Source of the DNA: Eledone cirrhosa
Lineage: Eukaryota
Direction: 5' to 3'
NCBI GenBank assembly: GCA_964016885.1
Contig: OZ024743.1
Location: 217,868,001-217,932,000 of the forward strand
Length of the DNA stretch: 64,000 bases
A model generated the notes under the pieces. That model had not been told where the DNA came from. It did no database searches and worked only from the letters and a program-made list of their open reading frames with translations. The stretch's first letter is position 1, and the number at the start of each line of letters is the position of its first letter. Position numbers and translations under genes: made by a program. This document shows, one piece after another, positions 5,905 through 60,495 of the stretch.

Positions 5905-6400
5905 TGTAGATTTTAAGCGATGGTTACAGTATAACGATCGCTCTATTCTGTTATTTAATAAAATATTTTTTGATTTCATAATACAAAATAATTCCATATT
6001 ACACAATTTACAAAATTCTTGCCCGTGGGAATATATGGAGGGGCATCGCTATTATATCCCATTTTAGGTTAAATTGTTGGTTATTTTCGCGCAGCTGCCA
6101 AGCCTTGTCTGCGAGTGTTGTTACATAACGCTGGTTTTCATGTTTTATCGAGTAACGATGTCTATAAAGGCGAGATTTGAAGGAGGTGGCTGTAGAACCC
6201 ACATAGTACCACTTCTGGCTATCCGATTCGATAGTACATTTGTATATGATGTTGCGTTCAAGACACTGATTGTTCAACGGACACATTCCTGGTTGGACAC
6301 AGTTACAGTTATAATTTTGCGTTGTTGTATTGGCATGGATGGGTTGATGAGGTTGCTTAGGCAGGACGGGGTGTTTTTTGTTGTTTTGTGATGCTATAGC
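5905..6400 (-). pseudogene. PLE GIY-YIG endonuclease C-terminal fragment (frameshifted)
   Basis: CNCVQPGMCPLNNQC...IIYKCTI...YVGSTATSFKSRLYRH in ORF 6008-6436. Confidence 0.85.
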
Positions 6401-6683
6401 TTTATATACTTGTTTACCATTAACTTGAATTGCCATCTGTCATATATTATCCCCTCTCTTCTCCTTTATTACAACTAATATAAATACTTCAATTTTTCTG
6501 ATTTTTTCCAATTTATCCAATATCTCTGAAGAAGTGACAACTGATTATACATTTGCTATCGAATACTTGCTAACATTATATGATTACGCAAGCAGCGATA
6601 CATAGGTATTCCGTCTGTTACAGAAACATATGGCAATACCTAATAAATTCCTTTTAAAAAAAAAGCACTTTCATTTTATATTC

Positions 6684-7807: not shown

Positions 7808-7997
7808 AATAATTGTTTCTACTTTTGGCACAAGGCCAGCAATTACGCAGTACATTACTGGTACTTTATTTTATCGACCCCGTAAGGATGAAAGGCAAAG
7901 TTAACCTCGACGGGATTTGAACTCAAACCGTAAAGGGACGTAAGTATGCTAAAAAGCATGGCGTCCAACCCTCTACTGATACTGCCAATTCACCCCC
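7808..7997 (-). mobile_element. tRNA-derived SINE with target-site duplication
   Basis: Same family as 1112-1303; ttattctgccaaaataat is repeated on both sides. Confidence 0.88.
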
Positions 7998-8173
7998 CTT
8001 ATTCTGCCAAAATAATGACCATTGCGTTCATCCCATCATTTTCAGCAAACGTTTCAACCAATTAACTTTTATTAACACATACAATTCTTAGTATAGAGCG
8101 ATCTCAGGGGTAGTGGAATATAGGCTGCAAGATTTGTGTATGTGTTCGAGAATTCATAGACACACACAGACAT

Positions 8174-8364
8174 AATAATTATTTCTACTTTTGGCACAAG
8201 GCCAGCAATTATTCAGTACATTACTGGTACTTTATTTTATCGACCCCGTAAGGATGAAAGGCAAAGTTAACCTCGGCGGGATTTGAACTCAATCTGTAAA
8301 GGGACGTAACTCTATGCTGGAAAGCATGGCGTCCGACCCTCTACCGATACTGCCAATCCACCGC
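8174..8364 (-). mobile_element. tRNA-derived SINE
   Basis: Same family as 1112-1303. Confidence 0.85.
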
Positions 8365-15500: not shown

Positions 15501-16076
15501 GAATCATCTATACTGGAGTATATCTACATACAGTCTGTTAATTTTCTGGTGAAGAAAATCTTATACCCACTGAGTGGTTTGGCTGTTTTCAAGTAACTTA
15601 GTTTTAATTTACGTACAGTTATATAAACATTTTCTACTTCTATCCATTCATTGGTATATCTGTATGATATAGTTCTATGTTAAAATAGTGCTTGTATGAT
15701 ATTCCATTCAATGCTTCCTTCTAAGATAGAATTGCCGGTTTGATTGCTCATGACTGTCTTCGAGTCTCTTTGATAAAATTATAATCGAAATGCCATTAAC
15801 AGTGACATCACGTTTCCAAACATTTAGAACAATTATCTTTACTTTATATCCCATATTTAATAAATGCTTGTGTCACTATATGCTTCGCATTTCGAAATTC
15901 TATTTATTGGCATATTTTCATAAATATCCATCTCATTACTAAACACTTCCAGGCATACATAGAACATACGCAATTCTGTTTGAAATTTAAACTACTACTC
16001 AGATTAACGAATATTTGCATCACCAAATCAGGTGTTATATATGCCTGTTCGTGTACATATATGCTTATATATATAC

Positions 16077-16133
<57 letters not shown>

Positions 16134-16174
16134 GTACAGTATATATATAAGCATATATATATATATATATATAT

Positions 16175-16374
16175 AACGAAGGAAGTGTGGTAAGGAACCA
16201 GATGAACCATAACGCACCAGAGTACTCAATACTTAGGGTAGTAGAGTGGGTAATAGGAAAATGTTTAACCTCGACGGCAAAGCTCAAGCCGTTTCGACGG
16301 CTATTTCTGGACTGAAAGAGTTCAGAAATAGCCGTTGAAACGGCTTGAACTCTACCGTCGGGGTTAAACATTTT

Positions 16375-16377
<3 letters not shown>
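16175..16377. mobile_element. Fold-back pLTR fragment (family also at 30628-32120, 53251-53441, 59361-59558)
   Basis: Hairpin 16254-16377 built from two hammerhead 3' halves (GAAA-CGGCT...CCG-TC-ggggt), plus an ~80-nt tail; lies between (TA)n tracts. Confidence 0.8.
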
Positions 16378-16423
<46 letters not shown>

Positions 16424-16447
16424 ATTTATATATATATATATATATAT

Positions 16448-19205
16448 TTAGATACAATTATCCCACAATTAAGAAAACACGTTAACTTACCACTCTGGGA
16501 AAACACATCTCAAGTAATTAACTGGTTTACTAATATTAGAAATAAATCATCTGCTTCATTTCTACAATTTGATATAGATGCTTATTATTCCTCTATATCA
16601 CCCATACTCCTGAACAAAGCCTTGATATTTGCCAAAAATAGATCAGACTTAACTATGGATGACATTAATATTATCACGTACGCTAGACAAATACTACTGG
16701 AGTTTCAGAAGGAATACTGGACCAGAAATACATATAATAATCTCGTCGACATAACTATGGGCTCTAGTGATTCCGCCCAAATTACCGATCTTGTTGGCCT
16801 CTTTCTTCTATTTAACATTAATTCATTTTTTCCCCCACCTTAAAAGTGGTTTATATCGTGATGACTGTCTTCTTCTTTCCACTAATCTTAGCCTATCAGA
16901 AATTGAAAGAAATAAAAAACTTATTAGAACTTTCCTCAAAGACTATTACAATCCCACTATTACATTTGAAAACACCAGTAAAATAGTCAATTTCCTAGAT
17001 ATAACTTTAGACCTATCTACCAACCTTACCATAAACCTAACCAAAACTTACATTACATACACTCACAATCCAATCACCCTAGATCTATCCTTAAAAAACC
17101 TAGCATATAACATCTCACTGAGAATCTCTAACCTTTCCTCTAACCAGGATGTATTCGATAAAAACGCGCCCTTTTATAACGAAGCTTTAGCTAGAAGCGG
17201 CCACAAAAACAAATTACTCTACATACCTTGCACCAATAATACTTCAAACATACAACCCAATATTACCAACAAACACCAAATGAAAAACCCACACCTAAAT
17301 GTCACTCATACTACACCTAAAAATACCAACCTAAAACTTAATTTCGCTAACTCTTCTCACATAAAATATAATGACTTTCAAAAAACCATTCATCATAATA
17401 CTCCAATATATGTTAACAACATTACTAACAAAATTCCTAGTAATCAGACTAAAACACCTAAATCAGTTAATCTAACTAAACCTATATATAATAAAGTCAC
17501 TAATAGTAACTCTCTTAGTAAACATTCTGATACAACGTATAAAAATAAAAAACAATATCGAAACCGTAATAGACGAGTTACTTGGTATAATGCTCCATTT
17601 AATCTACAAATTAAAGACAATATCCCTAAAAACTTCTTTGCTATCCTAGAGAAAAACTCCCACCAAACCATAAATACCATCAAATTTTAAATAGATCAAC
17701 TGTCAAATTTTCCTACTCCACTACCAAAAATATACAACAGAATATAAGTGCGTACAACGCATATAAGTTTTTAAAAACCACAAATATACCACCAACACAT
17801 CAAACCAACCATAATGCTAAAATAAACCTCAACAAACCACCATCTCCTTCACCTATAACAAGTCGAGTAAACTCCACACCAAATTTGACTAACTCCCCTG
17901 ATATAATATTCACGAATGGTTGTAACTGTAGAATCAAAAGAAATTGCCCATTAAAAGGGAAATTGTCTTATTAATAACATAGTCTATAAATGTAAAATTA
18001 GCACTAAGGACTCCACTTATTCATATATAGGAGCTACGTCTAATCAATTTAAAGTAAGATTTAAAACATAGTTTTTAAAATGCCGCATTAGCTAATACAA
18101 CACCCTTGGCTGAAACAATTAATAATTATAGAAAGAAGAATATCGATTACAACCTGACCCCGAGCGTGCTCAAAAGGGCCACCCCTTATCGAATTAGTAG
18201 ATACGAGTGTAGGTTATGCTCCCAGGAACTTTTTGAAATCATGAAATCTAAGGATATCCTATTAAATAAGCGACAGGAATTAATTATATCTTGCAATCAT
18301 AGAATTAGAAGAACCTTCAAATATTATAAACCTAATTAATATACACCTTACTCTTATATTTTACAAATTATTATAATTGGGTTTTTTAATTTAGTTAACC
18401 TATAATTAGTATTTTACTACAGAGAACTTCATAATTTTATTTCCCTCTTACAGCTCTCTTTTCCTAAAATACCTATAAGTATACCTATGAATGAATTTAA
18501 TTTCCTGTTATGTATCTAGATTCCTTGTAGTTTAAATAAGATTGGTATTTCTCACTACTACCCTTACCCCAAAATTTTACTTTCCTTTGTTTTTAACAAC
18601 ACTCTTTAATAACGTCTAATTCTTATTTATCACATTCATATTAATTAATGTAACTTTATCCCTATAACTATACCTATCAATTAATTTAATTTCTTGTTAT
18701 AGATCTAGATTCCTTGTGGTTTAAATAAGATTGGTATTTCTCACTAATACTCTTACCATAAAATTTTATTTTCCTTCGTTTTTAACATTATTCTTTAATA
18801 ACATCAAATTTTCGTGTTCCTTTCACTATCTTCTTGGCTTGACCTCTTTTCATCCCTAAAGTATTCTTTTCATTCAAAACATAAGTCTTCACTCCTCTAC
18901 CCCGAAATTAAATTTCTACTACTGTTATTCTATCAACTTGACCTCGAACTACTTTTCTATTGGTCAATTCAAAAGCTATTCCCAAACATACCTTTTATAT
19001 TAAATGTTTGTTGGTTTTTTTCAATAAACACATCTCATCATTTCTGAGGACGGCATGTATATGTGAAGGTATGTATATTTCCTCTGATAAATTGTAATAT
19101 TTTTCCATAGATCTATTTGATATACATCCCAGAAACGATCGTAAAATGATGAATTTTTTTAATATAAGGAACTTGTTCTTTGTTTTTATTTCATTGTTTT
19201 TATTA

Positions 19206-19254: not shown

Positions 19255-19259
<5 letters not shown>

Positions 19260-20602
19260 GGTATGTATTGCTAATAAGTGTTTTTCTGGAGGTACCTGGT
19301 CTTTCTTCTATCTTAATATTGAGTTTATGTTTATCTAGGGCCCTTCTAAATTTGTAAGCTAATTCACCTCTAGGGGTTGTATCGATGAACATTACACTCT
19401 GGCATTTATTGCTATCATACCGTGAGTTTATTCTATTAGCCTTATTCCTAGTTCTTTCTATGCTATTCCACAATTTGCTCCTGTACAAGGGGCAGGTCCC
19501 ATTTGTGTCATTATTTACCATGGTAAATAATGCAAATTTTGGAATAGAATAGAAAGAACTAGGAATAAGGCTAATAGAATAAACTCATTGTATGATAGCA
19601 ATAAATACCAGAGTGTAATGTTCATCAATACAACCCCTAGAGGTGAATTAGCTTACAAATTTAGAAGGGGCCTAGATAAACATAAACTCAATATTAAGAT
19701 AGTAGAAAGACCAGGTACCTCCATAAAAATACTTATTAGCAAGACATACCCTTTTCAAAGACCTCCCTGTTTAGATAAGAAATGTATAATCTGTAAATTA
19801 AGCCCCCATATTAAATGTAAAACTAGAAATGTAGTATATAGCATAAGATGTACTGAAGGACAATGTAGAGATAAAAATATAGTGTACATAGGTGAGACAG
19901 CTCGTAGTATAGGGGAACGGATAAATGAAGACTAGCGAGACCTTCAAGATAGTAAAGAATCATCTGTACTCTACCAACATGCTAAAATAGAAAATAAGGG
20001 TAAATTAGAGAACATAGGAATAAAAATAGAATCTACACACAGAAAAGACGCAATGTTTAGACAAATCACAGAAGCAATAAACATAAATGCATTCCAACCA
20101 AAATTAAATAGAAAACATGAATGGAACAGCAACATCACAACTTACAATTAAGGACAAAATGAAAACACACACGCACATAGAACAAACAACCAACCAGTAA
20201 CATGCAAATAAACAAATAAATAAACAAATATAAACACACCCGGACACTCGGATGTAACACATGCGCAAACTAAGCACACAACACACACACAAAAACAAGA
20301 TGGCGTCGGACAGAACAAAGGAGAGGCACGAAAACAAAGAAAAGAATCTCCAGTAACTGAAGAGGTCGCAGAATGTGTCACCAAAGAACTTTGACAATAT
20401 ATAAACAATCATCCGGTTGTGGAACCAACCAAACAACCGGAAATTTATAAATTCCTAAATTTATAAATTTATTATAATGAATTGAAGTGAAAGCAACTGG
20501 TGCGTGTGTTTCGTATTGGCAACATGACCCTCCCAACTATAAGAATATCGGTTTCAACACACGATTTCAGATAAAGAATCTTGCTAAACAAATTCAGAAA
20601 CG

Positions 20603-20757: not shown

Positions 20758-20792
<35 letters not shown>

Positions 20793-20995
20793 GTATGTAC
20801 ACGTACATACATATATGTATACAGACGTACAGTAGTATGTATATATATATATACATACACGACACATACATATATGTACGCATGGATTCACCGAACATTT
20901 ATTATAATGCTCGGTGTGTTTGTAAACAAACATCCCGTATTAAGCCGTAGTGTCCAGCAACCATCGTTGCTCGTTTATTCAACACTGACAAAGGA

Positions 20996-21038
20996 ACGAT
21001 GTACTAGTTTCAAGCTTATTAGCTATCGTCAGCAACGT
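20996..21038 (-). ncRNA. Minimal type I hammerhead
   Basis: acgttg-CTGACGA-tagct aata agctt-GAAA-CTAG-TA-catcgt. Confidence 0.8.
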
Positions 21039-21652
21039 ATACCTTCCTGCCAGATTTTTGAACGTATATACTTACCTTATGCATATTAACGGCTGAGTAG
21101 CCCAATTTGTATATCGAGTGGGTTAATCGGCCGGGTGCACGGAAAACGATAAACGGAAAAAATGAAACGAAATTTCATTTCCCACTCTTAGTACGGCTGT
21201 TACTTAAATATAAGTATGTACACGTACATACATATATGTATACAGACGTACAGTAGTATGTATATATATATACATACACGCACATATATATATATATGTA
21301 CGTATGGATTCACCGAACATTTATTATAATACTCGTTGTGTTTGTAAACAAACATCCCGCATTAAGCCGTAGTGTTGAACAAACGAGCAGCGATGGTTGC
21401 TGGACATGTGTGCCTCTATGTATATATATAGACATACTACTGTATGTCTGTATACATATATGTATGTACGTGTACATACTTATTTAAGTAACAGCCGTAC
21501 TAAGAGTGGGAAATGAAATTTCGTTTCATTTTTTCCGATTATCGTTTTCCGTGCACCCGGCCGATTAACCCACTCGATATGCAAATTGGGCTACTCAGCC
21601 GTTAATATGCATAAGGTAAGTATATACGTTCAACAATCTGGCAGGAAGGTAT

Positions 21653-21695
21653 ATGTTGCTGACGATAGCTAATAAGCTTGAAGCTAGTACAACGT
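21653..21695 (+). ncRNA. Minimal type I hammerhead, GAAA mutated to GAAG
   Basis: atgttg-CTGACGA-...-GAAG-CTAG-TA-caacgt. Confidence 0.65.
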
Positions 21696-21996
21696 CCTTT
21701 GTCAGTGTTGAACAAACAAGCAACGCTGGTTGCTGGACACTAAGCTTAATACGGGATGTTTGTTTACAAACACACCGAGCATTATAATAAATGTTCGGTG
21801 AATCCATACGTACATATATATATGTGTGCGTGTATGTATATATATATACATACTACTGTACGTCTGTATACATATATGTATGTACATGTACATACTTATA
21901 TTTAAGTAACAGCCGTACTAAGAGTGGGAAATGAAATTTCGTTTCATTTTTTCCGTTTATCGATTTCGGTGCACCCGGCCGATTAACCCACTCGAT

Positions 21997-22044
21997 ATGC
22001 AAATTGGGCTACTCAGCCGTTAATATGCATAAGGTAAGTATATA
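21997..22044 (+). promoter_or_regulatory. Putative snRNA-type promoter: octamer, PSE-like box, TATA
   Basis: ATGCAAAT 21997-22004, tcagccgttaatatgcat from 22013, TATATA 22039-22044; the same spacing occurs in other families. Confidence 0.5.
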
Positions 22045-22070
22045 CGTTCAACAATCTGGCAGGAAGGTAT

Positions 22071-22113
22071 ACGTTGCTGACGATAGCTAATAAGCTTGAA
22101 ACTAGTACAGCGT
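22071..22113 (+). ncRNA. Minimal type I hammerhead
   Basis: acgttg-CTGACGA-tagct aata agctt-GAAA-CTAG-TA-cagcgt. Confidence 0.85.
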
Positions 22114-22466
22114 TCCTTTGTCAGTGTTGAACAAACGAGCACGAATGGTTGCTGGACACTACGGCTTAATACGGGATGCTTGTTTACAAACACACCGAGC
22201 ATTATAATAAATGTTCGGTGAATCCATACGTACATATATATGTGCGTGCGTGTATGTATATATATATATACATACAACTGTACGTCTGTATACATATATG
22301 TATGTACGTGTACATACTTATTTTTAAGTAACAGCCGTACTAAGAGTGGGAAATGAAATTTCGTTTCATTTTTTCCGTTTATATATATATAAATTAATAT
22401 ATAAACACATTATGCATACATACATACATACATACATACATACATACATACATACATACATACATA

Positions 22467-26673: not shown

Positions 26674-26749
<76 letters not shown>

Positions 26750-26751
<2 letters not shown>

Positions 26752-27951
26752 TATAAAGTATGTCCATAGAATCATTTGATAATATATATACACCATTTCA
26801 TCTCCCAATTAGCATAATTAACCACACAAAAAATCAATTAGACAAGGCTATAAGATTAAAAGTTACCTATGAAGAAATAGTAGATAAATAAACAACAGCA
26901 ATCTCTTCGCGACCAACCGCCATAGAATATTTACCCAACATTTCAACAGCACGTGGAAATCGATTAAATAAAGCGTCAACCATACACAATTAGGTATAAA
27001 ATTAAAGTTAGAAGAAATGCATATACACATACCAGGATTTCGTTTCTACCCTAGGGTTTCGTCGCATTTGGAAATATCCTATTAAGGATAAAATCTCGAG
27101 CTTCGAACTCATCAGGAAACAAAATCGTTTGGACAAAGGATTTTCTTAAGTGATCTCCACCAGAAACGAATTCAAAATGGCTAATAACTGTGACGTGGCA
27201 GTGGTCAAGTCAGAAAGAATGTGATTGGTTGCTTACGGCGAGTGGGCTGGTTGCTAGAATGCGCAGCCCAATATTGCCCAAATTGTATCTCAACCTTATT
27301 GGAGATTATTAAATATAAAGATTTACATATACACAAACTAGACAAAGTCACGGTTATATATGTTTTGGCAACCGTTCACGATGTGGCTCAATGATGAATT
27401 AATAAATTAAATAATCAGAGCAATATACTATAAAGTATGTCCATAGAATCATTTGATAATATATATACACCATTTCCTCTCCCAATTAGCATAATTAACC
27501 ACACACAAAATCAATTAGACCAGGCTATAAGATTAAAAGGCACCTATGAAGAAATAGTAGATATAAATAAACGACAGCAATCTCTTCGCGACCAACAGCC
27601 ATAGAATATTTACCCAACATTACATCTGCAAGTGGAAATGGATTAAATATACCATCAACCATACACAATTAGGTTTAAAATTAAAGTTAGAAGAAATGCA
27701 TATATATACACATACCATGATTGTGTTTCTACTCTAGGGTTTCGTTCGCATTTGGAAATATCCTATTAAGGATAAAATCTCGAGTTCGAACTCATCGGGA
27801 AACAAACTCGTTTGGACAAAGGATTTTCTTAAGTGATCTCCGCCAGAAACGAATTCAAAATGGCTAATAACTGTGACGTGGCAGTGGTCAAGTCAGAAAG
27901 AATGTGGTTGGTTGCTTACGGGGAGTGGGCTGGTTGCTAGAAAACGCAGCC
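26750..27951 (-). mobile_element. Non-coding partial tandem (~680-bp unit) with two hammerheads
   Basis: 26750-27270 is repeated at 27427-27951; bounded by (TA)n. Confidence 0.8.
27036..27126 (-). ncRNA. Type I hammerhead
   Basis: gattttgtttc-CTGATGA-gttcg...cgac-GAAA-CCCTAGGG-TA-gaaacgaaatc. The second copy at 27725-27803 has CCGATGA. Confidence 0.85.
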
Positions 27952-28027
27952 ATATATATATATATATATATATATATAGGACCTCTTAAACCACCTCCCC
28001 AAACATGTCAACAACGACACTATTATT

Positions 28028-29416
28028 GTGTCTTTCGATGTAGTGAATCTCTATACAACGATCCCACACCAATACGGACTAGAAGCAATAGGATTCTGGC
28101 TAGAGAAATATCCCAATGAGATACCTGACAGAATAGAAAAAAGCTTCATCACCGAGGGATTAAAATTCACCCTACAGAACAACTTTTTTGATTTCGATGG
28201 CAATACTTACAAGCAAATATCGGGGACTGCGATAGGCACAAATGCCGCTCCAACTTATGCCAACTTAGTCATGGCATACTTAGAAGTCCAGATATATGAA
28301 CAGTCCAAATCAAAATACGGATTGAACTTCCACAAATATTTATCAGAGAATTGGAAACGCTACTTGGATGATTGCCTCATTCTTTGGTCCCACACACTCG
28401 ACCAACTGAAGGATTTCAAAAACTTAATAAACGGCATCAATAACCACATCCAATTCACAATGGAATACAGCCAAGATCAACTCCCATTACTGGACATCTT
28501 AATCACAAAAAAAGTCACAAATATCGAAACTGACATACACTACAAACCAACAGATTCCAAACAATATCTGCTATTCACCTCCAACCATCCAAAGCACACG
28601 AAGACGAACATTCCTTTTAACCTAGCAAGAAGAATTTGCACAATTGTCTCCAGTTATGAAACGCGAAATAAAAGACTTCAAGAATTAAAGGAAATTCTAC
28701 TTGAGAGAGAGTACCCACTATTACTAATAAATAATGGAATAGAAAGGGCTAAAGCAATAGGCATTGATGAATTACGGAAACAGAAACAAATTCAAGGTAC
28801 GTCCAATATTCTATCATATATCTCAACACACAACCCAAGAAATGCGGAAGCTTACAACACTATTCACAATAACATCCCACTACTAAAACAAAACCCAAGA
28901 ATGAAAAAAGCTCTTGAAACACACAAAATAATCAAAAGCAAAAGACAACCAAAATCACTGAAAACATTACTCACCAATGCCAAATTACCTACCACAAACC
29001 CACAACCAAGTATCAAAAAATGTGGTCGCTCTAATTGTGGAACCTGCACTCACCTCATTGGAGGCAACACGTATACATTTAAATCAGGACAAAATTTTAC
29101 TGTAAAAAATCACTTCACTTGCTCATCAAAAAATCTGATTTATGCCATTAAATGTAAAGGATGCAATGAAGATTATATAGGACAAACTAAACTCCCACTC
29201 AGAAACAGAATGACAGTTCATCGCCAACAATTACGAGATCCAACCACGAGACAGATACCACTAAGTGCACATCTAGACATTTGCGCAAGTAATAAGACAC
29301 CCAAATTCCAAGTCTTCCCATTTTACCTTTGCGCTAACAATACAACAGAACAAATGCGAATAAATAAGGAAAATATGTTTATTCAAAAATATAGACCAAC
29401 ATTAAATAAGGTTTAA
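28028..29416 (+). CDS. PLE reverse transcriptase + Zn knuckle + GIY-YIG endonuclease (N-terminally truncated)
   Basis: FDVVNLYTTIP, GTAIGTNAAPTYANL, RYLDD, KPTDSKQYL, CGRSNCGTC, LIYAIKC...YIGQT...R...H, terminal LN. Confidence 0.92.
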   Translation: MSFDVVNLYTTIPHQYGLEAIGFWLEKYPNEIPDRIEKSFITEGLKFTLQNNFFDFDGNTYKQISGTAIGTNAAPTYANLVMAYLEVQIYEQSKSKYGLNFHKYLSENWKRYLDDCLILWSHTLDQLKDFKNLINGINNHIQFTMEYSQDQLPLLDILITKKVTNIETDIHYKPTDSKQYLLFTSNHPKHTKTNIPFNLARRICTIVSSYETRNKRLQELKEILLEREYPLLLINNGIERAKAIGIDELRKQKQIQGTSNILSYISTHNPRNAEAYNTIHNNIPLLKQNPRMKKALETHKIIKSKRQPKSLKTLLTNAKLPTTNPQPSIKKCGRSNCGTCTHLIGGNTYTFKSGQNFTVKNHFTCSSKNLIYAIKCKGCNEDYIGQTKLPLRNRMTVHRQQLRDPTTRQIPLSAHLDICASNKTPKFQVFPFYLCANNTTEQMRINKENMFIQKYRPTLNKV

Positions 29417-30532: not shown

Positions 30533-30627
30533 AACCAAATAAATGTATATATTTTTTTTTTAAAAATAAGACTTCAGTTGCATTTTCGATTTCATCCCTT
30601 TTTCTTTATATATATATATATATATAT

Positions 30628-31579
30628 AACGAAGGAAATGTGGTAAGGAACCAGGTGGACCATAACGCACCAAAGTACTCAATACTTAGGGTAGTAGAGT
30701 GGGTAATAGGAGTGGGTAATATAAAAAGCGGAGTCAGCCAAATCTATCGTAGAATAGGGAAGGGGGGGTGCTGAAGCTACAAGGGACCGAGGGGCTACCT
30801 CGGGTGGGCGAGAAAAATACGACGACAAAGAAAGAGAACTGGGGTAGAAAGACTAGGGAGGGATGGGGGGAAGGAGGAAATATAGAGGAAGCGATAAAAA
30901 ATGTAAAAGAAGATCTTACGTCTCCATTGGCAAGCAGGGGTTACCCCTTACAAAATAGGCAAGTGGGGTCGTCGTCTTTTTCTCGCCCACCCGAGGTAGC
31001 CCCTCGGTCCCTTGTAGCTTCAGATCCACCACCCCCCTCCCCTATTCTACGATAGATTTGGCTGACTCCGCTTTTTATAGCAGAGGTGTTAGACTTCGGA
31101 TACTTGCCCCCTTCTCCGACCGCTGTCCCTTTTTCCCGTGCCTTCTATATTTCTTAGTGGCATCTTTGCTTTAATTTCTCGTTTATTCAGTATTTCTTTC
31201 TTCTTTTTCCCTTTTTTTTGGGGGGGGGGGGGGTGTTTCTGTATTAATTCTCCGTTCTTTACTTTTACTTCGTACGATCTTTCATGTAGCTTGTATAAGA
31301 TTTTCTGTTTCGTGGCGCCCCTTAGAGTTAGCACGAGTATTTTTTTTTTTTTTTACGGGACCCTGAATTATATTCTCGTACTAGTTAACTTTCTTGCTCT
31401 GGGTGGTTGCTGGCCCTGTGATTGGGGTAGAAACCTTTATTATTTAGTGGTAGTCTCTTTAGTATTTTGGCCCCCCTTTGTTGACCCGTCACCGTACGAT
31501 ACACGCACTTATACCTCGTATAAGGGTCCCTTTATTTCCGTCCCACCTAGTTTATTTTTATTTAATTTTTATTCTTCAT

Positions 31580-31610
<31 letters not shown>

Positions 31611-32120
31611 ATTCTTTTTTTTTTTTAATTTATTTATCTATTCTTTTATTCACTTATTTGTTTATTTATTTATTTATGTATTTTTTTAGCCTAGCAATAG
31701 CGAGAGACTTAAGTCTTAGTAACCAGACTTTGCTTTTTTTTTTTCTCTCTCTCTCAGTACTTTTTATAGTTTTACCCTTCTTTGTTTTACTTACCGTTTC
31801 GACTTCCTCCCCCTCCCCAGTATCTTCTTTGACCTCACACCCAGCTGTAGCCGGCACTACCAACGCATGAATGGGTCTACTCCACCCCCTCTCCCTTTTT
31901 CTCCTACCGGCAGGTTCAGCTACCCCTTCCCCCACCAATTTGCCATCACAGATTTACTACTAACTTGTGATGTGACCAATCCTGGTGATTATCTCTTTGA
32001 CCATATATGGAATTACCCCTTGATAAGCTCGGCTATTTAAATACCTGAATAAATTTTCTTTCAGTCCAGAATTAGCCGTCGAAACGGCTTGAGCTCAGCC
32101 GTCGGGGTCTTACTTGTTCC
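30628..32120 (+). mobile_element. Non-coding PLE-derived element with inverted tail and internal GC-rich inverted repeat
   Basis: 30628-30712 matches the inverted family tail; inverted repeat 30720-30826/30968-31079; pLTR end with HHR at 32015-32108. Confidence 0.7.
32015..32108 (+). ncRNA. Type I hammerhead, U3:A8 core, full stem III
   Basis: acccc-TTGATAA-gctcggcta...tagccgtc-GAAA-cggct tgagctc agccg-TC-ggggt. Confidence 0.8.
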
Positions 32121-32142
32121 TATATATATATATATATATATA

Positions 32143-34560: not shown

Positions 34561-34623
34561 CTGTATATGACAAGTTGGTCAAGGAATAGTAATTCCCGAA
34601 GCTGAGAAGCGAATATTATATAA

Positions 34624-34796
34624 GGGTGGTGGATTGGCAGTATCAGTAGAAGGTCGGACGCCATGGTTTACAGAGAGAGTTACGGCCTTTTATAATCTGA
34701 ATTCAAATGCCGTCGAGGTTAACTTTGCCTTTCATCCTTACGGGTCGATGAAATAAAGTACCAGTAATACATTGTGCCAAATGTAGAAACAATTAT
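34624..34796 (+). mobile_element. tRNA-derived SINE (internally deleted)
   Basis: ggtggtggattggcagtatcag...aattcaaatgcc...gtcgatgaaataaagtaccag...tagaaacaattat. Confidence 0.8.
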
Positions 34797-34803
34797 ATAT
34801 ATT

Positions 34804-34836
<33 letters not shown>

Positions 34837-42563: not shown

Positions 42564-42581
42564 CATATATATATATATATA

Positions 42582-43072
42582 TAAAAACAAATAACGAAAC
42601 GAAATTAAATTTCGTTTCGTTTGTAACTCACTTTTGTATGACTGACGCTTAAACAATTAAGTTAAAAATGTACATCCACATATGTATACTGAAATACTAG
42701 TATGCATATGAATACACACACGTGTACATATGTAGATGTACCGAGTTTTTCACTGGACACTTTACTGTGAGTGTTCAGCTATTCTGTATGTAAACACACA
42801 GACAAACCGGTTTTTAGAGTCATACTGGTTTTCGAGGAAACACCTTTCCTCTATTCTCCAAAAAGCCAGACAGGAACATTGGACTAGTTTCGATGTTGTT
42901 ACATCTCATCAGCAATATTTACCTATCCACCGGCCTTTCTAGAGAATCGTAAAAGCACATATCGTTATATGCTTTTTCTATGAAAATTAGTAGTGGGCAG
43001 ACTAATTTGCATAGAGCGTGAGTACGTACCGGTTCAGCGGAGACGATAAAAACGTTATTTGTTTTTATCGTC
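42582..43072 (-). mobile_element. Diverged relative of the 418-bp HHR repeat
   Basis: Shares the octamer (43005-43012), HHR with CTAG stem III, gaaattt...cgtttc end and overall layout. Confidence 0.65.
42875..42919 (-). ncRNA. Minimal type I hammerhead
   Basis: aatattg-CTGATGA-gatgt aaca acatc-GAAA-CTAG-TC-caatgtt. Confidence 0.88.
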
Positions 43073-43936: not shown

Positions 43937-46900
43937 CACACACACACACATACACATATATATATATATACATGTGTGAGTATCTGTACACTACTCATAC
44001 ATGTGCACATACTCACACATAAACACTCGTACACCTATACTCACACATGGTGGATGCCAACTCGCTTTTGAGTACGGCCACTACTTTATATCCATGTAGG
44101 AGAACCCTACCGATGCGCTGAACGAATGTGACATTTTAGTCCAGCCAGCGACTTGAAAAATCTGGTACAGACACTACACTTGTGACAATTATTGACACAT
44201 AGTGCTGGGCCCATGGTACCATGTGACGACAAGTGCAGAGAGATCTCCAGATATAAAGCAATGCCTGTGCTGTGAAGCTTTTATAGTGAGCAAAGGCACT
44301 GCACCAAGCCAGTCCCACTCTCTTAACCAAGATGATATTTACCAAAAAGAGGAACAAGTCAACATCATTGGATACCATCAGGGTTGCAGGTGTTACATCA
44401 GAGTTTTCCTTCTCCTAGAATTCTGCCTTGACAAAGGCTAAGGAGTCATCTCTCTCGGTGATTTTGGATGGCCATTGACTCTTAAGAGCTCATTTGCCCT
44501 TTGACAGGTTTTGTTTTTAGTCCTGCAGGATGTCCAGTCACCCTCCTCACCAAGAAACCTTGGTGGGGTTGCCAGTTTAGTCGCCAACGACCCGACAATG
44601 AGACAGGTTGTACTGGGATACATGTTACCAGTACTCACACATACACACATACAAACACTCACATATATATATACATATATATATATACACATATGTATAT
44701 ATATACATATATACACATACACACATACACACATATACAAGCATACATATATATACACATATACACATACATAAATACATATACACACATATACATATAT
44801 ATACATACACACACATAAATATATTTCCATATCATACATAGATATATATTTACTCATGCAATTACGGCTGATTGTGTATCTTGTTGCCTTTAGTCATTAA
44901 CGCATAAATCTAAGGAAGCTAATACATTAAAAGGCAAAAGATAAGCATGAATGCATATAATTAGGGGAAAGAGGTACTAATAAGTGTTACTCTATATGGA
45001 ATTATAGTGAGTTGCTATTTAGAATATTTAATTAGGTTTATAGTATTTAATTAGATTTATAGTATTTAAATGTTTCGTATACAGTGATTACAAATCCTGT
45101 CTTTTATTTAATAAATCGTCCTTAGATTTAGTTATTTCCAAGATCTCCCCTGAACATAATCTGCATTCCCTACTGTTCCCAAGATATGGAGTTCTTTGTA
45201 GAAATCTATTTTTTCCTTTTTATAATTATTTGCCGCTTCAGCTAAAGATGTGGTGTTTATTATTGTTGAAACTACTAGAGTGTGCGTAAAATATTTTCTT
45301 AAATGTATTTGATGTAGATCCTAAATATGTTTTGTTGAAGTCTGTAGTAGACACAGTGCATTTATATATTACATTATTAATCAAACAGTTTCCATTTAAG
45401 GGGCAAATGCTTCTATTTCTTCAATTACAGCCATACGTAAGATGGTTATTGGAGGTGCCTGTATTATTCTCATTAATCCTTGAACTATTTCTATTGTAAT
45501 TAATGATAGCAGGAGAATAAAGGTTGCTTTGTGGATGGTTTGGTGCTAGGGTTGTATTGTGATTTTGTGTTCTGTTGTTTTTGTGTGGGTGATTTAGTTT
45601 GTTGTGTTTTCTAGGTTGAAGGATTGTATTATTTGCCTTTTTAAAAGGTGCAGTCCTATTTAAATTATGTTCCGGTGGTGTAGTCATATTTTTTTAAAGT
45701 TTATAAATGTTGTAGTTGCTTATTTTTTGTTTGAGATTGCTTGATGTAGAGTATGAGAATTTTACAGTATATTTGTTAAATATTTGGTGGCATCTGTGGT
45801 TTGGTGGAAAATGTTTATATAGAATTTCAAAGAATTTTTAGGGATTTGTCCAATAGTTTGCAGGTTGAAGGGGGGTGTTGTGCCATGTTATGTTTCTTTT
45901 GCGGTTTTTAGTTAAATTCTTATTGTCACTTATATTATTATGTTGTGTTCTAGAAGAATTCCTATGGTTAGTGTCCTTATTTGTGGAATTTGGTAAATTA
46001 TCGTGGTTGTATTTAGTGTTATTTTGGGCTAGATTATGAGATTTTGAATGCTTGATATTCATACGTGGGTTGATAATATTGGTCATAGATCGTGTATTAA
46101 TAGTTGTTGTGATTTTTCGGTTGTCTGGTGTAATAGGAATAACCACTTTAGGTATTTGTTTCAATGGTGTTTTTTGTTGTTTGTAGTTTTTGTTAGGTTT
46201 TATGTTTTGGTCCATTGTAGTGTTGGGGATACATGAGATTGTTTCTTTATATCCACTTCTAGTTAAGGCCACGTTGTAGAAGGGTGCATTATTATAAAAT
46301 GTACACAATGTAGATTCTGGTTAGGTTTGTGGTAAGGTTCATAAGTATTCGTAGAGAGGTCTAAGGTAACGTCAAGAAAATTAGTTACTTTTGAAGTGTT
46401 TTCAAAAGTGATGCTAAGGCTGTAATAGTCCCCGAGGAATCCTCCAATTTGTTTTTTGTTCTTCTCTATATTGGAATTGCTAAGATTGTTAGATAACAAT
46501 AGACAATCATCCCGACAAAGACCACCCCTGAGGTGGGGAAAAGAGTCATGAATGATATAGATAAGAAATAGTTCAACGAGGTCTGTAACTTGAGCAGAAT
46601 CCATGGATCCCATCGTAATATCGAAAGAGTTGTTATATGTGTTTCTTGTCCAGTATTCTCCCTGGAAGTCTAGCAAGGTTTTTCTAGCGTGAGTTTTGAT
46701 GTTGATTTCCTCAGTAGATAAATCCTATCCTTTTCTGGCAAAGATCAGTCCCCTGCCTAAAAGAATTGGAGGAATCGAAGAATAGCAAGAATCGATGTCG
46801 AACCGAATGAACGAAGCTGAGTTTCCACTCCCAATGCCAGTAAACCATTCAACAACTTGGGAAGTGTTATCCCATAGTGAATGTGTTACAGACTTTCTAA

Positions 46901-48720
46901 TTTGCGGAATGACACGGTCAAAAATCTTTGCTGACATTGCCGATATCAGATCCAGATGGGCACATCAGTCTAACAGATGGTTTCGAGCCAAAGTCAGACC
47001 CATGGTCTTTCAGGTTGAAGTGCGGGCTTTTAGGCGTGAAAGGCTCAGTCCTATCTTCAATCTGGAGCTTTCTTCCTATATCACATGACACGTCGCTCAG
47101 GGATGCCAGTGCGGTGGTATTTGCTTTTCTATAGTTCTTTTCAAGTTCTTTATACACGAACTGGCCATACCTACCGATATCCATATGGTACAAGTTACCA
47201 GTCTTGTCAGAACGGACATGGACCCCGCCTGAACCTTTCAGTTGCAGAAGGGCAGAATCTAATCCCCCTTGGAACCCCGACCTGCGCCCCCCAACCCCAT
47301 GTTTTCAATCACGTTCAGTAGGGCGCTCTCACAATTTTCCAGTTGAACATTATGAGGAGGACCTTTGCATGTCCTGAATCCATAGCGGCACCTCACCCCA
47401 TCCGCATCAGCTCCGTTATCAAAATGGTAGGCCCTCCATCTCACCCCCCTAACAAATTGGTTAGTTTTTGTATGAGTAAGATTAGATATTCATCTTTAGG
47501 TGGAATTGGAATATTCTTCAACGAAGTACCCAAATATTGTTTTTTCATTGTGATACAAGAATTAGATGAAAAAGAGCTCAACTAAATATTATAATCAATT
47601 ATGAAAAATATATTGAAGGAGCAAAATGCACAGAGGTATCCTCAGTAAGTTGTGGGGTCGATTCTGCATGAAGAACTCGATGTAATCCATATGTTGAAAA
47701 TGTAGGTTAAGATAAATCTCGGAAAACAATAAAACATTAAAAGGAAAACAGAGTCATGATATAAGTTAAAACAATGAAATAAAAAATCAAGTCATTAGAG
47801 ATATACTTCACTGCTTTACGATCGTTTCTAGATGATGATAATACATTGTAGCTATACTCAGTAATTGATCTGTGTAAGGTTAGTTACAAACTATCAGATA
47901 AAGAGAATATTTACTTACATGCATATCACCAGCTATTTTCAAAAGCAATAATAATTGTATTCAATAATGATTTTATTCAGAATTAGTAGTATGTTAGTAT
48001 CATGTCCTTATTTGGGGTTAGTTGAAGAACTAACGAATCAAATTGTTTGTTTCATATGGTGTTAAGATGAAAAATAATATACTTTAGTTGAGGTCATGAC
48101 CCTTTGAAAGGAATGGTTGAAGGGTGATTTGGCATAAAAATCTATTAGGAGGAAAGGGATTGTCAAACTGATAGTTGAATGTATCTGGTATAGTGAATTT
48201 AAAAGGAATGTCAAAATAAATGGTGATTAGTGTTGTATTGAGTTTTAAGGTGAATACAAATTAAGGTTATGGCTAGGAAAGATAGTATATTAAAAGATGA
48301 AAATGATAATAAGATAATGAAATACAGTAATGCGATAATATACAACTTAACCAACACAATATAGTACCGTGTGGTAAATTGCATTTAGTATAATATAGCA
48401 TATGATACGCTCTAAAATACTATCAAGTATGATTATGGATAAATAATCAAACTCAGATAAATTCATGTTGGCATAGTTAAAACACATAAAATTCATATAT
48501 TACAAAGTGCATATACTCACACTATATATAGAGAGAGGTAGAGTTAAATTGATATCCAACCAAAAATATACATACGCACAAATAGATGCAAATCTAAATA
48601 CACATTTACACGCATGCATATAATGATATACATACATATCCGTACATATCTATATCCACACATACACATCTATACCCACATATATACATATATACACACA
48701 CACACTCATACATACATATG
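43073..48720 (-). mobile_element. Near full-length defective Penelope-like element (Naiad-like) with upstream pLTR
   Basis: pLTR ~48720-47625 with HHR at 47810-47949. ORF starts at 47548 (MKKQYLGTSLKNIPIPP...RWRAYHF), then RT motifs and GIY-YIG to ~45050. The 3' region is interrupted by the element at 44046-44634. Confidence 0.9.
44046..44634 (-). mobile_element. RTE-derived bipartite element nested in the PLE 3' region
   Basis: Near-identical to 22467-23060; actcacacat occurs on both sides. Confidence 0.7.
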
Positions 48721-49119: not shown

Positions 49120-52650
<3,531 letters not shown>

Positions 52651-53094: not shown

Positions 53095-53205
53095 GAGAGA
53101 GAGAGGTAGAATACTGGAAGGTAATATCCATAGTGGTAGAGCACAACAGTTAGTTCACTATACCGAGAACAATTGCTTCACCTTAAGCGGATCTTCATAT
53201 ATGTA

Positions 53206-53250
<45 letters not shown>

Positions 53251-53253
<3 letters not shown>

Positions 53254-53441
53254 AACGAGTAGGACCCCGACGGCTGAAATCAAGCCGTTTCGACGGCTAA
53301 TTCTCGACAGTATTAGCCGTCGAAACGGTTTGACCTCAGCCGTCGGGGTCCTACTCGTTCCTATTATCCACTCTACTACCCTAAGTATTGAGTACTTTGG
53401 TGCGTTATGGTCCACCTGGTTCCTTACCACATTTCCTTCGT
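53251..53441. mobile_element. Fold-back pLTR fragment (16175 family)
   Basis: Hairpin 53251-53362 of two HHR 3' halves plus family tail; bounded by (TA)n. Confidence 0.8.
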
Positions 53442-53624
53442 TATATATTTATATATATATACGTTTATATGTGTATATATATACACACATATAAACGTAT
53501 ATATAAATCTATATATATACATTTACATGCATACATATACGCGCACTCCCTTATATATATATATATATAAATGGCTTCTACAGGATCATAAATGTTTCAT
53601 TTGGGAGAAATCATCAAGAAAACT

Positions 53625-54101: not shown

Positions 54102-54514
54102 AGTGAATGTGAAAGACGAAAGGTTATTAGTGAATGTCTCTGGATTTCGTAAAATACATATGTTTTATTGGAGAAGGTAAGGTATTTTGTCCGCAAAAAA
54201 AATGCACTGCATTGTTTCCACTTATGTATTTTTTGAAAATGTTATTTATTCATTATAAAAATTGAATAATGATAGAATTCTATATGTAGGTGGTCCCCCT
54301 TCTTTCCTGGCAACTAAAATCTGCCACCCTATATGTATGTATATATATATATATATTTTTTTATAGAGGTGACACACGAGTTGTGATATATTAGTCATAT
54401 GACTCCAGTTCCTCAGTGAATTAACAACCCAACAAGGAACTGGGCATATCAGAGTATTGACAATATTATACACCTAAACAACATATGTACTTGTCTATAC
54501 CATACTAATTCAAA

Positions 54515-54567
54515 CTGCCTGAAGAGGTCATAGCCAAAGATGGCTGTCACTGAAATATATATAGCAG
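54515..54567 (+). ncRNA. Type I hammerhead in pLTR-like repeat ~54365-54716
   Basis: ctgc-CTGAAGA-...tagcca aaga tggctg...-GAAA-TATATA-TA-gcag; same family as 60033-60495. Confidence 0.75.
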
Positions 54568-54749
54568 CAATAAACGAAGCTAAATTTTAATCATTTGACT
54601 TTTATTTAACTTTATTTTACACTACTCCGGAGTAACCAAACCAACCTGCGCACTTCGTCGAGTGCTCCAGCCTGCATACTGAGGTGTTGGTATACAACCA
54701 ACATAAACTCAAAATCTATATATATATATATGTGTGTGTAAGTATGTAT

Positions 54750-55270
54750 GTATGTAAACGTACATACATATATGTATACAGACGTACAGTAGTATGTACA
54801 TATATACATACATGCACACATATATATATGAACGTATCGGTTTACGTGGTTGTCTAAAGACTGTACGGCGTAATCCGGGCAGTTTGTTTACAAACAAACA
54901 AACCGAGCATTATAATAAATGTTCGGTAAACCGATACGTGCATATATATATATGTGAGCATGTATGTATATATATACATACTACTGTATGTCTGTATACG
55001 TATATTTATGTACGTATACATACATACTTACATTTAAGTAAGTGCCGTACTAAGAGTGAGAAATGAAATTTCGTTTCATTCTATTCCATTTATCGTTTTC
55101 GGTGCGCCCAGCCGACTGAACTCACTCGATATGCAAATTAGGCTGCTCAACCGTTAATATGCATAAGGAAAGTATATACTCTCAGACGTTCAACCATCTG
55201 ACAGGAAGGTATAAGATGCTGACGATAGCTAATAAGCTTGAAACTAGTACATCGCTGAAACTAGTACATA
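54750..55270. mobile_element. 418-bp family member with inversion
   Basis: Aligns to the 21760-22110 region; octamer 55131-55138, TATA 55173-55178, HHR 55215-55253 with stem I gatg/catc. Confidence 0.8.
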
Positions 55271-55372
55271 GCATATATTTTCACTAGCTCTGACAGTTTG
55301 TTCACCTGCCAAACTGTCAGAGCTAGTGAAAATATATGCTATTTTCAAAAATACACAGTGACTGATCGGCAT

Positions 55373-55469
55373 GATTTGCATATTAGCAGACTGGCTGATC
55401 AGTCAGATCTGCATATTAGTAGATACACTGATCAGCCAGATTTGCATATCAGCAGACTTGCCGGTCAGT
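55373..55469. repeat. 33-bp tandem (3 copies) carrying octamer motifs
   Basis: gatttgcatat / gatctgcatat / gatttgcatat at 55373, 55406 and 55439. Confidence 0.75.
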
Positions 55470-55577
55470 TTTCTGTATACGAGCGATAAATGGCCGGCTT
55501 TGCAAATTCAAATAAAAAAGAAAATTTCGCTCTACATGGCTGAATACAATAAATGTAATCTGAGTGTTTCGAATATT

Positions 55578-55770
55578 AATAATTGTTTCTACGTTAGGCA
55601 CAAGGCCACCAATTACCCAGTGTATTACTGGTACTTTATTTTATCGACCCTGTAAGGATGAAAGGCAAAGTTAACCTCGGCGGGATTTGAACTCAGACCA
55701 TAAAGGGCCGTAACTCTTTGCTGCAAAGCATAGCGTCAGACCCTCTACCGATACTGCCAATCCCCCACCG
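55578..55770 (-). mobile_element. tRNA-derived SINE
   Basis: Same family as 1112-1303; aatattaataat on both sides. Confidence 0.85.
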
Positions 55771-55967
55771 TTTAATATTAATAATAACATTCGATTCGTT
55801 TGTAATTTTGCAAACAAGCCTCAATTTTATAGCCAGGTCAGAATAATGAACACTTCATTCTTGCTCTTATGTTGGCATTCTCCTGACATGGATACTATAA
55901 AATTGAGGCTTGTTTGCAAAATTGCAAGCGAATCGAATGTTAGTATTAATATTCGAATAGCTCAGAT

Positions 55968-58452: not shown

Positions 58453-58496
<44 letters not shown>

Positions 58497-58642
58497 AATA
58501 GGATTTCGCTTTAAGCATAGCTTTATACAATATGTATAAATATTTCGAATCTCCAAAGAAATACGGTTTTAAGAAGCCGTAGCTATGCAACCACCGGGGG
58601 GCTAACGCCCTCTGGTGATGTCCAGCAGAAGCAAGGGGGAAA

Positions 58643-58686
58643 ACCGTCTATGCATTTCAGGTTTAACTGACCTTCGTCAGGACGGT
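58643..58686 (-). ncRNA. Minimal type I hammerhead
   Basis: Reverse complement of 59028-59071. Confidence 0.88.
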
Positions 58687-58934
58687 CCCTCCCACCGCTT
58701 GCGACTGCTGGACTAGAAGGCCAGTTAAGCCTGAAATGCATAGACGGTTGTCCCCCTTGCTTCTGCTGGACATCACCACAGGGCGTTAGCTCCCCGGTGT
58801 TTGCATAGCTACGGCTTCCTAAAACCGTATTTCTTTGGAGATACGAAATATTTATACATATTGTATAAAGCTATGCTTGAAGCGAAATCCTATTTCTTTT
58901 TTATTATAAGTTGAGCCAACTTATGCAGCTTGAT

Positions 58935-58984
58935 ATGCAAATGAGATTAATCACCTCATTTACACAGACGAGAAAACTATATAT
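58935..58984 (+). promoter_or_regulatory. Putative snRNA-type promoter: octamer, TCACC PSE-like box, TATA
   Basis: ATGCAAAT 58935-58942, TCACC 58951, TATATAT 58978-58984. Confidence 0.5.
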
Positions 58985-59027
58985 TCTCGCCTGTCTTCTA
59001 GTCCAGCAGTCGCAAGCGGTGGTAGGG

Positions 59028-59071
59028 ACCGTCCTGACGAAGGTCAGTTAAACCTGAAATGCATAGACGGT
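59028..59071 (+). ncRNA. Minimal type I hammerhead
   Basis: accgtc-CTGACGA-aggt cagttaa acct-GAAA-TGCA-TA-gacggt. Confidence 0.9.
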
Positions 59072-59176
59072 TGTCCCCCTTGCTTCTGCTGGACATCACC
59101 AGAGGGTGTTAGCCCCCCGGTGTTTGCATAGCTACGGCTTCCTAAAACGGTATTTCTTTGGAGATACGAAATATTT

Positions 59177-59243
<67 letters not shown>

Positions 59244-59302: not shown

Positions 59303-59360
<58 letters not shown>

Positions 59361-59363
<3 letters not shown>

Positions 59364-59556
59364 AGAATGTTCAAAACCCCGACGGCAGAGCTCACGCCGT
59401 TTCGACGGCTATTTCTGGACTCAGAAATAACCGTCAAAAAGGCGTGAGCTCTGCCGTTAGGGTCTTGAACATTCTCATATTACCCACTCCACTACCCTCA
59501 GTATTGAGTACTCTGGTGCATTATGATCCATCTGGTTCCTTACTATACTTCCTTCG

Positions 59557-59558
<2 letters not shown>
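59361..59558. mobile_element. Fold-back pLTR fragment (16175 family)
   Basis: Hairpin 59361-59477 plus family tail. Confidence 0.78.
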
Positions 59559-59633
<75 letters not shown>

Positions 59634-60032
59634 GAGATTATATTTAAATTGTTGGGATTCAACAAGCTTAACAATTTTATGACTGATATAAAGCACTCAG
59701 CAAGTTCAAGCATAGCTTTATACAATATGTATAAATATTTCGTATCTCCAAAGAAATACGGTTTTAGGCAGCCGTAGCTATGCAAACACCGGGGAGCTAA
59801 CGCCCTCAGGTGATGTCCAGCAGAAGCAAGGGGGACTATCCAGGAAGCTCCAACCGTTAAGGTTGTCCTTTTTTCCGGGTATGTCATTTATTTATAAACC
59901 AAATCTGTATTTTATCTGATTAAAGCGCACCATATTTTAGCTTGGTTGCCCTTGAAATATGTATAATAAAATAAATATGGTTTTATTAATATAGTTTCCA
60001 TTTATTAATATATTGTATATATATATATATAT

Positions 60033-60491
60033 AAAATAATTAAGTCAAATAGGTAAAATTTGGCTTCGTTTCTTATAAATTATAGATATACTGCTATATA
60101 TATTTCGGTGACAGCCATCATTGGCTGTGACGTCTTCAGGCAGTCCGAATTTGTGTGGTAGAGACAGGTACACATGTTGTTTAAGTCTGTTTTACTCCGT
60201 CAATACTCCGATATGTCCAGCTACTGGTTGCCTTGTTATTTCTCAGAGAAATAACACAATGCGGACTGCCTCTACCACACCAATTCGGACTGCCTGAAGA
60301 CGTCACAGCTAATGATGGCTGTCACCGAAATATATATAGCAGTATATCTAAAATTTATAATAAACGAAGCCAAATTTTACCTATTTGACTTAATTATTTT
60401 ACATTACTCCGGAGTAAAAAGACCAACCTGCGTACTTCATCGAGTGCTCCAATCTGCATACTGATGTGTCGGTAAACAACCAACATATACT

Positions 60492-60495
<4 letters not shown>
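60033..60495. mobile_element. Fold-back pLTR with two hammerheads
   Basis: HHRs at 60090-60144 (-) and 60289-60343 (+): actgc-CTGAAGA...GAAA-TATATA-TA-gcagt. Confidence 0.82.

Follow-up and report, generated by a model that had tools for sequence, protein, structure and literature searches.

The closest described systems are the metazoan non-LTR retrozymes (Cervera and de la Pena, 2020, PMC7229834; Li, Clavereau and Pollet, 2026, 10.64898/2026.07.22.740005). In the accessible text of these papers they are repeats of 150–450 bp with less than 50% GC and no ORF, which carry a type I hammerhead ribozyme (HHR) with a short palindromic helix III, have a strongly self-paired monomer and co-occur with Penelope-like elements (PLEs). 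The octopod repeat described here resembles them in all of these respects. A short palindromic helix III is reported to lead to hammerhead cleavage as a dimer (PMC4209133), and in Xenopus one of the nine retrozyme dimers tested was reported to cleave, in a study that also links retrozymes to the terminal repeats of PLEs (10.64898/2026.07.22.740005). Retrozymes are described as seeming to lack promoters and as relying on read-through (2020 review, PMC7761336), and the accessible text of PMC7229834 and 10.64898/2026.07.22.740005 describes no promoter and mentions octopods in neither case. The octopod repeats differ in having a fixed octamer–TATA module before the HHR, seen in three families; their circular RNAs are predicted.

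A precedent for a hammerhead repeat with a promoter is newt satellite 2, whose promoter is a Pol II promoter of the snRNA type (Coats, Zhang and Epstein, 1994, cited in PMC2220036). Like the octopod unit, it is a hammerhead repeat of about 330 bp with an internal promoter. The newt promoter consists of an octamer and a PSE and is TATA-less, whereas the octopod unit has a TATA box, occurs in a mollusc, and has a box of which only YCA is common across families. The schistosome Sm-alpha repeat likewise carries both a hammerhead and an internal promoter, the latter reported to be a Pol III promoter (PMC2220036). It differs in being tRNA-related and SINE-like (PMC2770079); an Rfam search of the 323-bp octopod element reported no tRNA-like part.

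PLE insertions are described as partial tandems with an adjoining inverted, 5′-truncated copy, a tail of 30–40 bp at one end and a bias towards microsatellites (10.1101/2021.04.23.441226), and the tail formed in vitro corresponds to the gap between two internal sites from which the reverse transcriptase (RT) starts when the target is AT-rich (PMC11167929). The octopod repeats share with PLEs and their pseudo-LTRs this insertion anatomy, the AT-rich or microsatellite targets and the HHR within the repeat (also PMC4209133). They differ in having no ORF, in their canonical short-helix-II HHR, where PLEs have a minimal HHR with a long helix II, and in tail length (about 45 bp in the 323-bp family, and about 55 bp in a second, 418-bp family). 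A literature search, with most subscription papers outside its reach, found no octamer–TATA module in retrozymes, and the string ATGCAAAT was absent from the papers listed, 40 of 332 matches. The accessible text of a paper on octopus repeats (PMC13282606) does not mention ribozymes or promoters.

Anatomy and ends of the insertions

The window, by which we mean the whole 64-kb stretch of DNA analysed, has a GC content of 0.33 and is rich in (TA)n tracts and inverted repeats. The insertion at locus A, which belongs to the 323-bp family (family A), lies between two such tracts. The left (TA)n microsatellite (58454..58490), judged from sequence and junction to be the likely target, is followed by an inverted, 5′-truncated copy on the minus strand (58491..58719), which starts at TATA+17 (the equivalent of 58995), has an intact HHR core at 58680 and a tail of about 45 bp, and ends in T4 followed by (TA)n. 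It is joined to a direct partial tandem of 1.45 units on the plus strand (58716..59184), which starts within the first HHR (TATA+61) and reaches the right microsatellite (59181..59240) without a tail. The four nucleotides 58716–58719 are common to both parts. The tail (58860..58904, plus strand) consists of a stem-loop and a T-tract, with copy ends at 58898–58904, and is present on one insertion end only, the 3′ end of the inverted copy being about 45 bp longer than that of the direct part. A third, truncated fragment of the family (59705..59836, minus strand) covers TATA+95 to +226, so that the three copies in the window begin at TATA+17, +61 and +95. The direct part has only one complete HHR, and locus A would therefore be unable to make a monomer unaided.

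Copies of family A are arranged head to tail, without ORF or LTR, and continue across the T-tract into the promoter segment. The repeat length given in the original prediction, 323 bp, was confirmed by the 59182→58860 joint, found in three of four sequencing runs, and in run X1 4388 contigs were placed on the unit at a threshold of at least 82% identity, which favours similar copies. On these sequence features, the 323-bp unit is classed as a high-copy non-LTR retrozyme of an octopod-like genome.

The ends of the copies behave differently on the two sides. Among the 12 of 353 loose read ends listed, 3′ ends stack behind 58904 and 58898 (29 and 4 contigs in X1; 246 and 96 reads in X7). The seven strand-switch joints found among the 15 of 26 listed are all at different positions, with one contig each. 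In family A, the 3′ ends are fixed and the 5′ ends are scattered, which argues that the inverted copy is not the footprint of a transcript. The original prediction had placed this copy between a point just below the TATA box and the T-run and had equated it with the predicted transcript. Its extent is right (58719→58491, equivalent to 58995), but its 5′ end lies 13 nt upstream of a start at TATA+30, and the other 5′ ends and joints scatter; this is one half of the outcome, copy ends random with respect to TATA and T6, that the original prediction named as refuting it.

The same anatomy, with an inverted 5′-truncated copy, a partial tandem, a tail on one end and an AT-rich target, is found in the 418-bp family (family B; 20784..22382, inverted plus tandem, no single orientation), with octamers at 21579, 21997 and, with one mismatch and on the minus strand, 21112. 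Both ends of this locus lie in (TA)n, the tail is on the side opposite to that in A, and the right end is 8 nt past the T6. Family B includes a dimer with two HHRs. Families A and B and a third family, C, all terminate at TTAT, which could base-pair with a (TA)n target once this has been nicked.

A Penelope-like element of the kind expected to mobilise such repeats is present in the window as a 5′-truncated ORF with RT and GIY-YIG domains (27980..29416, plus strand; Pfam match). Among named sequences, its nearest relatives are from Octopus bimaculoides, at 75% over 65% of the query, and from Argonauta hians, which points to an octopod-like host. It is a candidate by type and not as the specific partner: no sequence common to the 323-bp family and a PLE was found by self-BLAST of the window or in the flanks examined. 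Penelope-like RT/GIY-YIG fragments are also seen at 16349–18344, 46263–47304, 49226–50946, 6008–6439 and 19256–19935, some of the fragments as inverted pairs; only 27980–29416 matched Pfam. Directly upstream of that ORF are two tandem copies of about 530 bp (26746–27957, 93% identity), in which the scan found no hammerhead; (TA)n lies between them and the ORF. Two further repeats were noted. One, dispersed and of about 300 bp, has an internal palindrome of about 125 bp and (TA)n flanks (16057–16431, 53197–53568, 59326–59633, 30607–30712 and 32063–32142). The other, of about 190 bp and presumably SINE-like, has five copies with 78–94% identity (1110–1304, 7808–7998, 8172–8364, 34620–34808 and 55574–55772).

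Hammerhead ribozymes and the octamer–TATA module

The family A ribozyme (59028..59071, plus strand, core at 59034) is of type I with a short palindromic helix III, and cleavage is predicted between 59065 and 59066. The original prediction called it a textbook HHR. Rfam found no hammerhead at the gathering score and none among 52 matches at E ≤ 10, and the copy at locus A favours another hairpin (−12.1 versus −9.2 kcal/mol). The matches to miRNA families were below the gathering score and were rejected as being due to the inverted repeat. The core is nevertheless as described, and stem II covaries: both partners of the pair 59044/59052 are altered in some 99% of the X1 depth, and the same change is seen in the X5 and X6 contigs, the single contigs of read organisms B and C. 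Loose read ends also include relatives of family A with a wholly altered stem II. With the common stem II allele, which occurs in the window from 58716 on, helices I and II do form in the predicted fold of the circular unit. Judged by core sequence and covariation the family A ribozyme is real, and its cleavage is predicted.

The pattern scan was also run on control sequences. In prokaryotic genomes, one of 120 pattern matches listed had even a loose hammerhead fold, compared with two of five in the window using the control filter, and five of five with a filter allowing a U-U mismatch; in viral contigs there were no matches. Such a mismatch is present at the base of helix II in the family B hammerheads (21659–21690), and is reported also for axolotl HHR_Amex2 (PMC7229834).

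RNA folding extends beyond the ribozyme. The monomer is strongly self-paired, with a z score of −5.96 when linear and, against mononucleotide shuffles, of −5.3 to −6.8 when circular. One arm of a long 9-bp stem lies at 59001..59009 (plus strand), with its partner at 59086–59094. Seven of these nine nucleotides are upstream of the predicted start, so that the stem could form only in read-through or circular RNA. The promoter segment itself also folds into RNA hairpins, in which the end of the octamer pairs with 58955–58961.

The module upstream of the ribozyme consists, on the plus strand, of the octamer ATGCAAAT (58935..58942), a gap of 8 nt (GAGATTAA), a PSE-like TCACC box (58951..58955) and the TATA box TATATATT (58978..58985), which begins 27 nt after the start of the TCACC box. 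A T6 is located at 58897..58902. All of these positions agree with the original prediction. A start is predicted within 59006..59011, at A59008 (TATA+30), in a YAG context that we take to resemble the initiator consensus. A YAG at TATA+29 or +30 is found in families A and C, in a diverged 418-type copy (B′) and in element D (described below), and is missing from three B copies including a short B variant.

The remaining elements that carry the module are B′ (54744..55262, plus strand; octamer at 55131, HHR core at 55219), family C (42581..43052, minus strand, about 470 bp; octamer at 43012, HHR core at 42912) and element D (55262..55500, or 55262–55560 in a wider delimitation, minus strand). 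C is homologous to B over its whole length (z 17–20) and has at its beginning a short inverted copy of the C tail. D has three 33-bp repeats, each consisting of an octamer or near-octamer, N8 and TCAG, followed by CATATAT and a hairpin; D is inserted head to head directly after the B′ ribozyme, and a tail like that of family A stands upstream of it. No HHR was seen in D, and it has no significant alignment to A, B or C. Downstream of the ribozyme, local alignment of A gives z 2.7 against the 418-bp family (10 of 1000 shuffles) and z 3.8 against C (2 of 1000 shuffles), in both cases mostly in the 3′ tail, and A and the 418-bp family have three further 9-mers in common. The original statement that these two families are unrelated, with no other similarity, was too strong, the similarity of A to B and C being weak. 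The elements therefore represent about three lineages, as far as can be judged from their sequences: A, the homologous B/B′/C, and D. As A is perhaps distantly related to B and C, the common module may reflect inherited constraint rather than convergence.

The spacing of the module is well conserved. YATATA follows the octamer end at 35 nt in A and D, at 34 nt in B and B′ and at 33 nt in C, and the box-to-TATA distance is 26–29 nt. The geometry originally said to be the same in A and the 418-bp family is so to within 1 nt (27 versus 26 nt from box to TATA), and the common architecture recurs in two more elements, C and D. Octamer-N32-36-YATATA matches six times in the window compared with 0.13 expected (100 shuffles), and octamer-N8-YCA seven times compared with 0.21, both patterns having been drawn up post hoc from these elements, with about three independent lineages behind the matches; a further pattern count gave 5 against 0. 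All seven octamers that have the N8-YCA sit in elements A–D, and none of the eight other octamers in the window is followed by it. Among short-helix-III hammerheads from the window scan, five of six have an exact octamer 80–100 nt upstream, the sixth being cut off 40 nt upstream of its core; one further copy has an octamer with one mismatch. The background chance is about 0.02 for an octamer within 160 nt, and about 0.04 for YATATA at 32–36 nt. When seven copies are aligned from promoter to HHR (62% mean identity), the invariant columns concentrate in the octamer, CA and ATA. The motifs of family E, which are hammerhead-like but have a long helix II (60029–60495 and 54409–54756, with cores at 60139 on the minus strand and at 60294 and 54519 on the plus strand), were left out of the octamer count as a different type. 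They form an inverted arrangement that ends in (TA)n, have no octamer upstream, and resemble the minimal hammerheads of PLEs.

The reads indicate that this spacing is stable among genomic copies, as the original prediction required. None of the 40 family A variants listed, out of 98, falls in 58934–58969 or 58978–58988. The sole indel listed in the octamer–TATA spacer has a depth of 22.7 out of 115,952 in X1 and occurs in 72 of 209 reads in X7, where a cluster of 93 reads behind 58971 has a spacer apparently about 8 nt shorter. A contig from read organism C covers 58869–59019 without gaps. The recurrence of octamer, N8, YCA and TATA in several elements, at six matches against 0.13, makes a promoter likely, and we consider it probable that the predicted octamer–TATA module works as one.

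Choice of polymerase and rival explanations

The original prediction interpreted the module as U6-type Pol III logic, with a PSE, a TATA box and termination at T6. The octopod unit does have the elements of a U6-type promoter in the same order (octamer, TCACC-like box, TATA, downstream T-tract). It differs in that the octamer abuts the box rather than being at −170 to −250, in that the terminator is apparently not conserved, and in that the promoter itself has to be transcribed. For comparison, U6 loci of eukaryotes were collected from metagenomes: of 68 pattern matches seven had a U6 box, and six were confirmed by Rfam. Four of the six have TATA at −30/−31 and a TCACC-like box at −66, that is, 35–36 nt apart. 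The distance from PSE to TATA is reported as 35 nt in S. japonicum U6 (PMC5460494), and the human PSE is placed at −65 to −48 (PMC9652321). The octopod box is thus 8–9 nt closer to TATA than in the U6 loci (26–29 versus 35–36 nt), and at this distance the TCACC box would not be a PSE in the standard register unless octopods differ. The literature search found no description of a mollusc snRNA promoter. None of the seven U6 loci has an exact octamer at the distance seen in A. Octamer-like words 7–9 nt before TCACC in the loci L128, L138 and L161 were not counted, having been selected by the search pattern, and a likeness between the S. japonicum PSE and the octamer region was rejected on its distance to TATA (35 versus 43 nt). 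In L128 (U6 start near 1220) the 5′ part of U6 and an intact promoter are followed, after the ACAGAGA region, by unrelated sequence, and it is possibly a U6 chimera or a truncated retrocopy. L144 and L187 have a U6 gene without an upstream TATA within a dense tRNA cluster (nine and seven tRNA matches).

If the unit were a U6-type (type 3) Pol III gene from octamer, PSE and TATA to T6, whose discrete TATA-to-T6 transcript is copied, copies should end at the T-tract, as they do, and ends after two, four or six T do look like Pol III ends. Compact octamer–PSE–TATA promoters are also known, as in H1 (PMC11340601), and neither A nor B21579 (the B copy with its octamer at 21579) has a run of T4 or longer between start and T-tract, which by our estimate is not significant for that length. 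Against this stand the box-to-TATA spacing, the scattered 5′ ends and the state of the T-tract. At the position of T6, T4CT is found in 23,704 of 42,663 depth in X1 (56%), so that T4 is kept and T6 is the minority allele; the end of the B copy lies 8 nt beyond T6; in B′ the longest T-run is shorter than T5; and C and B21997 have an internal T5. A transcript stopped at the T-tract would moreover lack the promoter of about 105 bp and be unable to regenerate it, yet the copies contain it, so that read-through is needed under either polymerase. Read-through is supported by the T4CT allele, the B end past T6, the stem bases upstream of the start and the z score of the circular fold. The U6/Pol III reading is weaker than the promoter reading, and we regard a discrete U6-type transcription unit as unlikely. 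A related idea, in our view rather improbable, is that octopods have a compact SNAPc promoter, with the octamer abutting the PSE and a PSE–TATA distance about one helical turn shorter, which was captured by several retrozyme lineages and by D; an external promoter would then have become mobile via read-through and hammerhead cutting into circular RNA.

The module might also not be a promoter, its motifs being kept for reasons at the RNA level (folding of the circle, or binding of Penelope or host proteins) or as the remains of one ancestral terminal repeat, with RNA supplied by host read-through. This would agree with the reported apparent lack of promoters in retrozymes (PMC7761336), with the hairpins formed by the promoter segment, and with the homology of B and C and the weak similarity of A to both. 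However, ATGCAAAT and its distance to TATA are constant although the surrounding folds of A and B differ, D has octamer-N8-TCAG three times ahead of TATA, like an enhancer array, and a YAG at TATA+29/30 is common to A, B′, C and D; we consider this explanation fairly unlikely. Chance resemblance is very improbable. TATA-like words are common in an AT-rich genome full of TA repeats (4% background), and the patterns were picked after the elements had been seen, but the shuffle counts, the octamers before five of six hammerheads and the low rate of hammerhead folds in the prokaryotic control all speak against it.

A predicted route of replication

On balance, the 323-bp unit is likely to be a non-LTR retrozyme that is non-autonomous and depends on Penelope, with its own promoter, read-through transcription, hammerhead-excised monomers and insertion by Penelope. 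The promoter would be internal and consist of the octamer (a POU/Oct site), a YCA box beyond a gap of 8 nt and a TATA box 33–35 nt after the octamer. Oct- and TBP-dependent transcription would start near 59008, about 30 nt after TATA, and the RNA from one unit would cross the T-tract into the next. An octamer 30–45 nt before TATA is also a classic layout of Pol II promoters such as those of immunoglobulin and histone H2B genes. Within this model, we give read-through by Pol II a small advantage over leaky Pol III.

A pair of hammerheads, probably working as a dimer, would release a 323-nt monomer in which the promoter sequence is included, and the paired monomer ends could be circularised by a host ligase (PMC7229834). 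A Penelope RT/GIY-YIG protein, as putative partner, would nick (TA)n tracts. The cDNA would begin at two internal tail sites about 45 nt apart, and would then be truncated or switch template at variable 5′ points, giving insertions with an inverted copy and a partial tandem. The common replication strategy that was originally proposed for the two families is supported to this extent, and looks like Penelope-type mobilisation.

The retrozyme class is already known, and newt satellite 2 is a precedent for a hammerhead repeat bearing a promoter. The octamer–TATA module in three hammerhead families specifies which bases to mutate and where a start is predicted, and if active, the promoter, of about 80 bp, would be a possible tool for cephalopod transgenesis. 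The insertion anatomy gives direct support at the level of the locus for mobilisation by Penelope, for which the evidence in the accessible literature has hitherto come from co-occurrence and phylogeny (PMC7229834; 10.64898/2026.07.22.740005). What is new here is the suggestion, from sequence, that an octopod has promoter-bearing, Penelope-mobilised retrozymes. This bears on the source of the high RNA levels of animal retrozymes, which the 2020 review, in its accessible text, assumed to be passive, promoterless read-through (PMC7761336), and for which these families may instead carry a promoter of their own.
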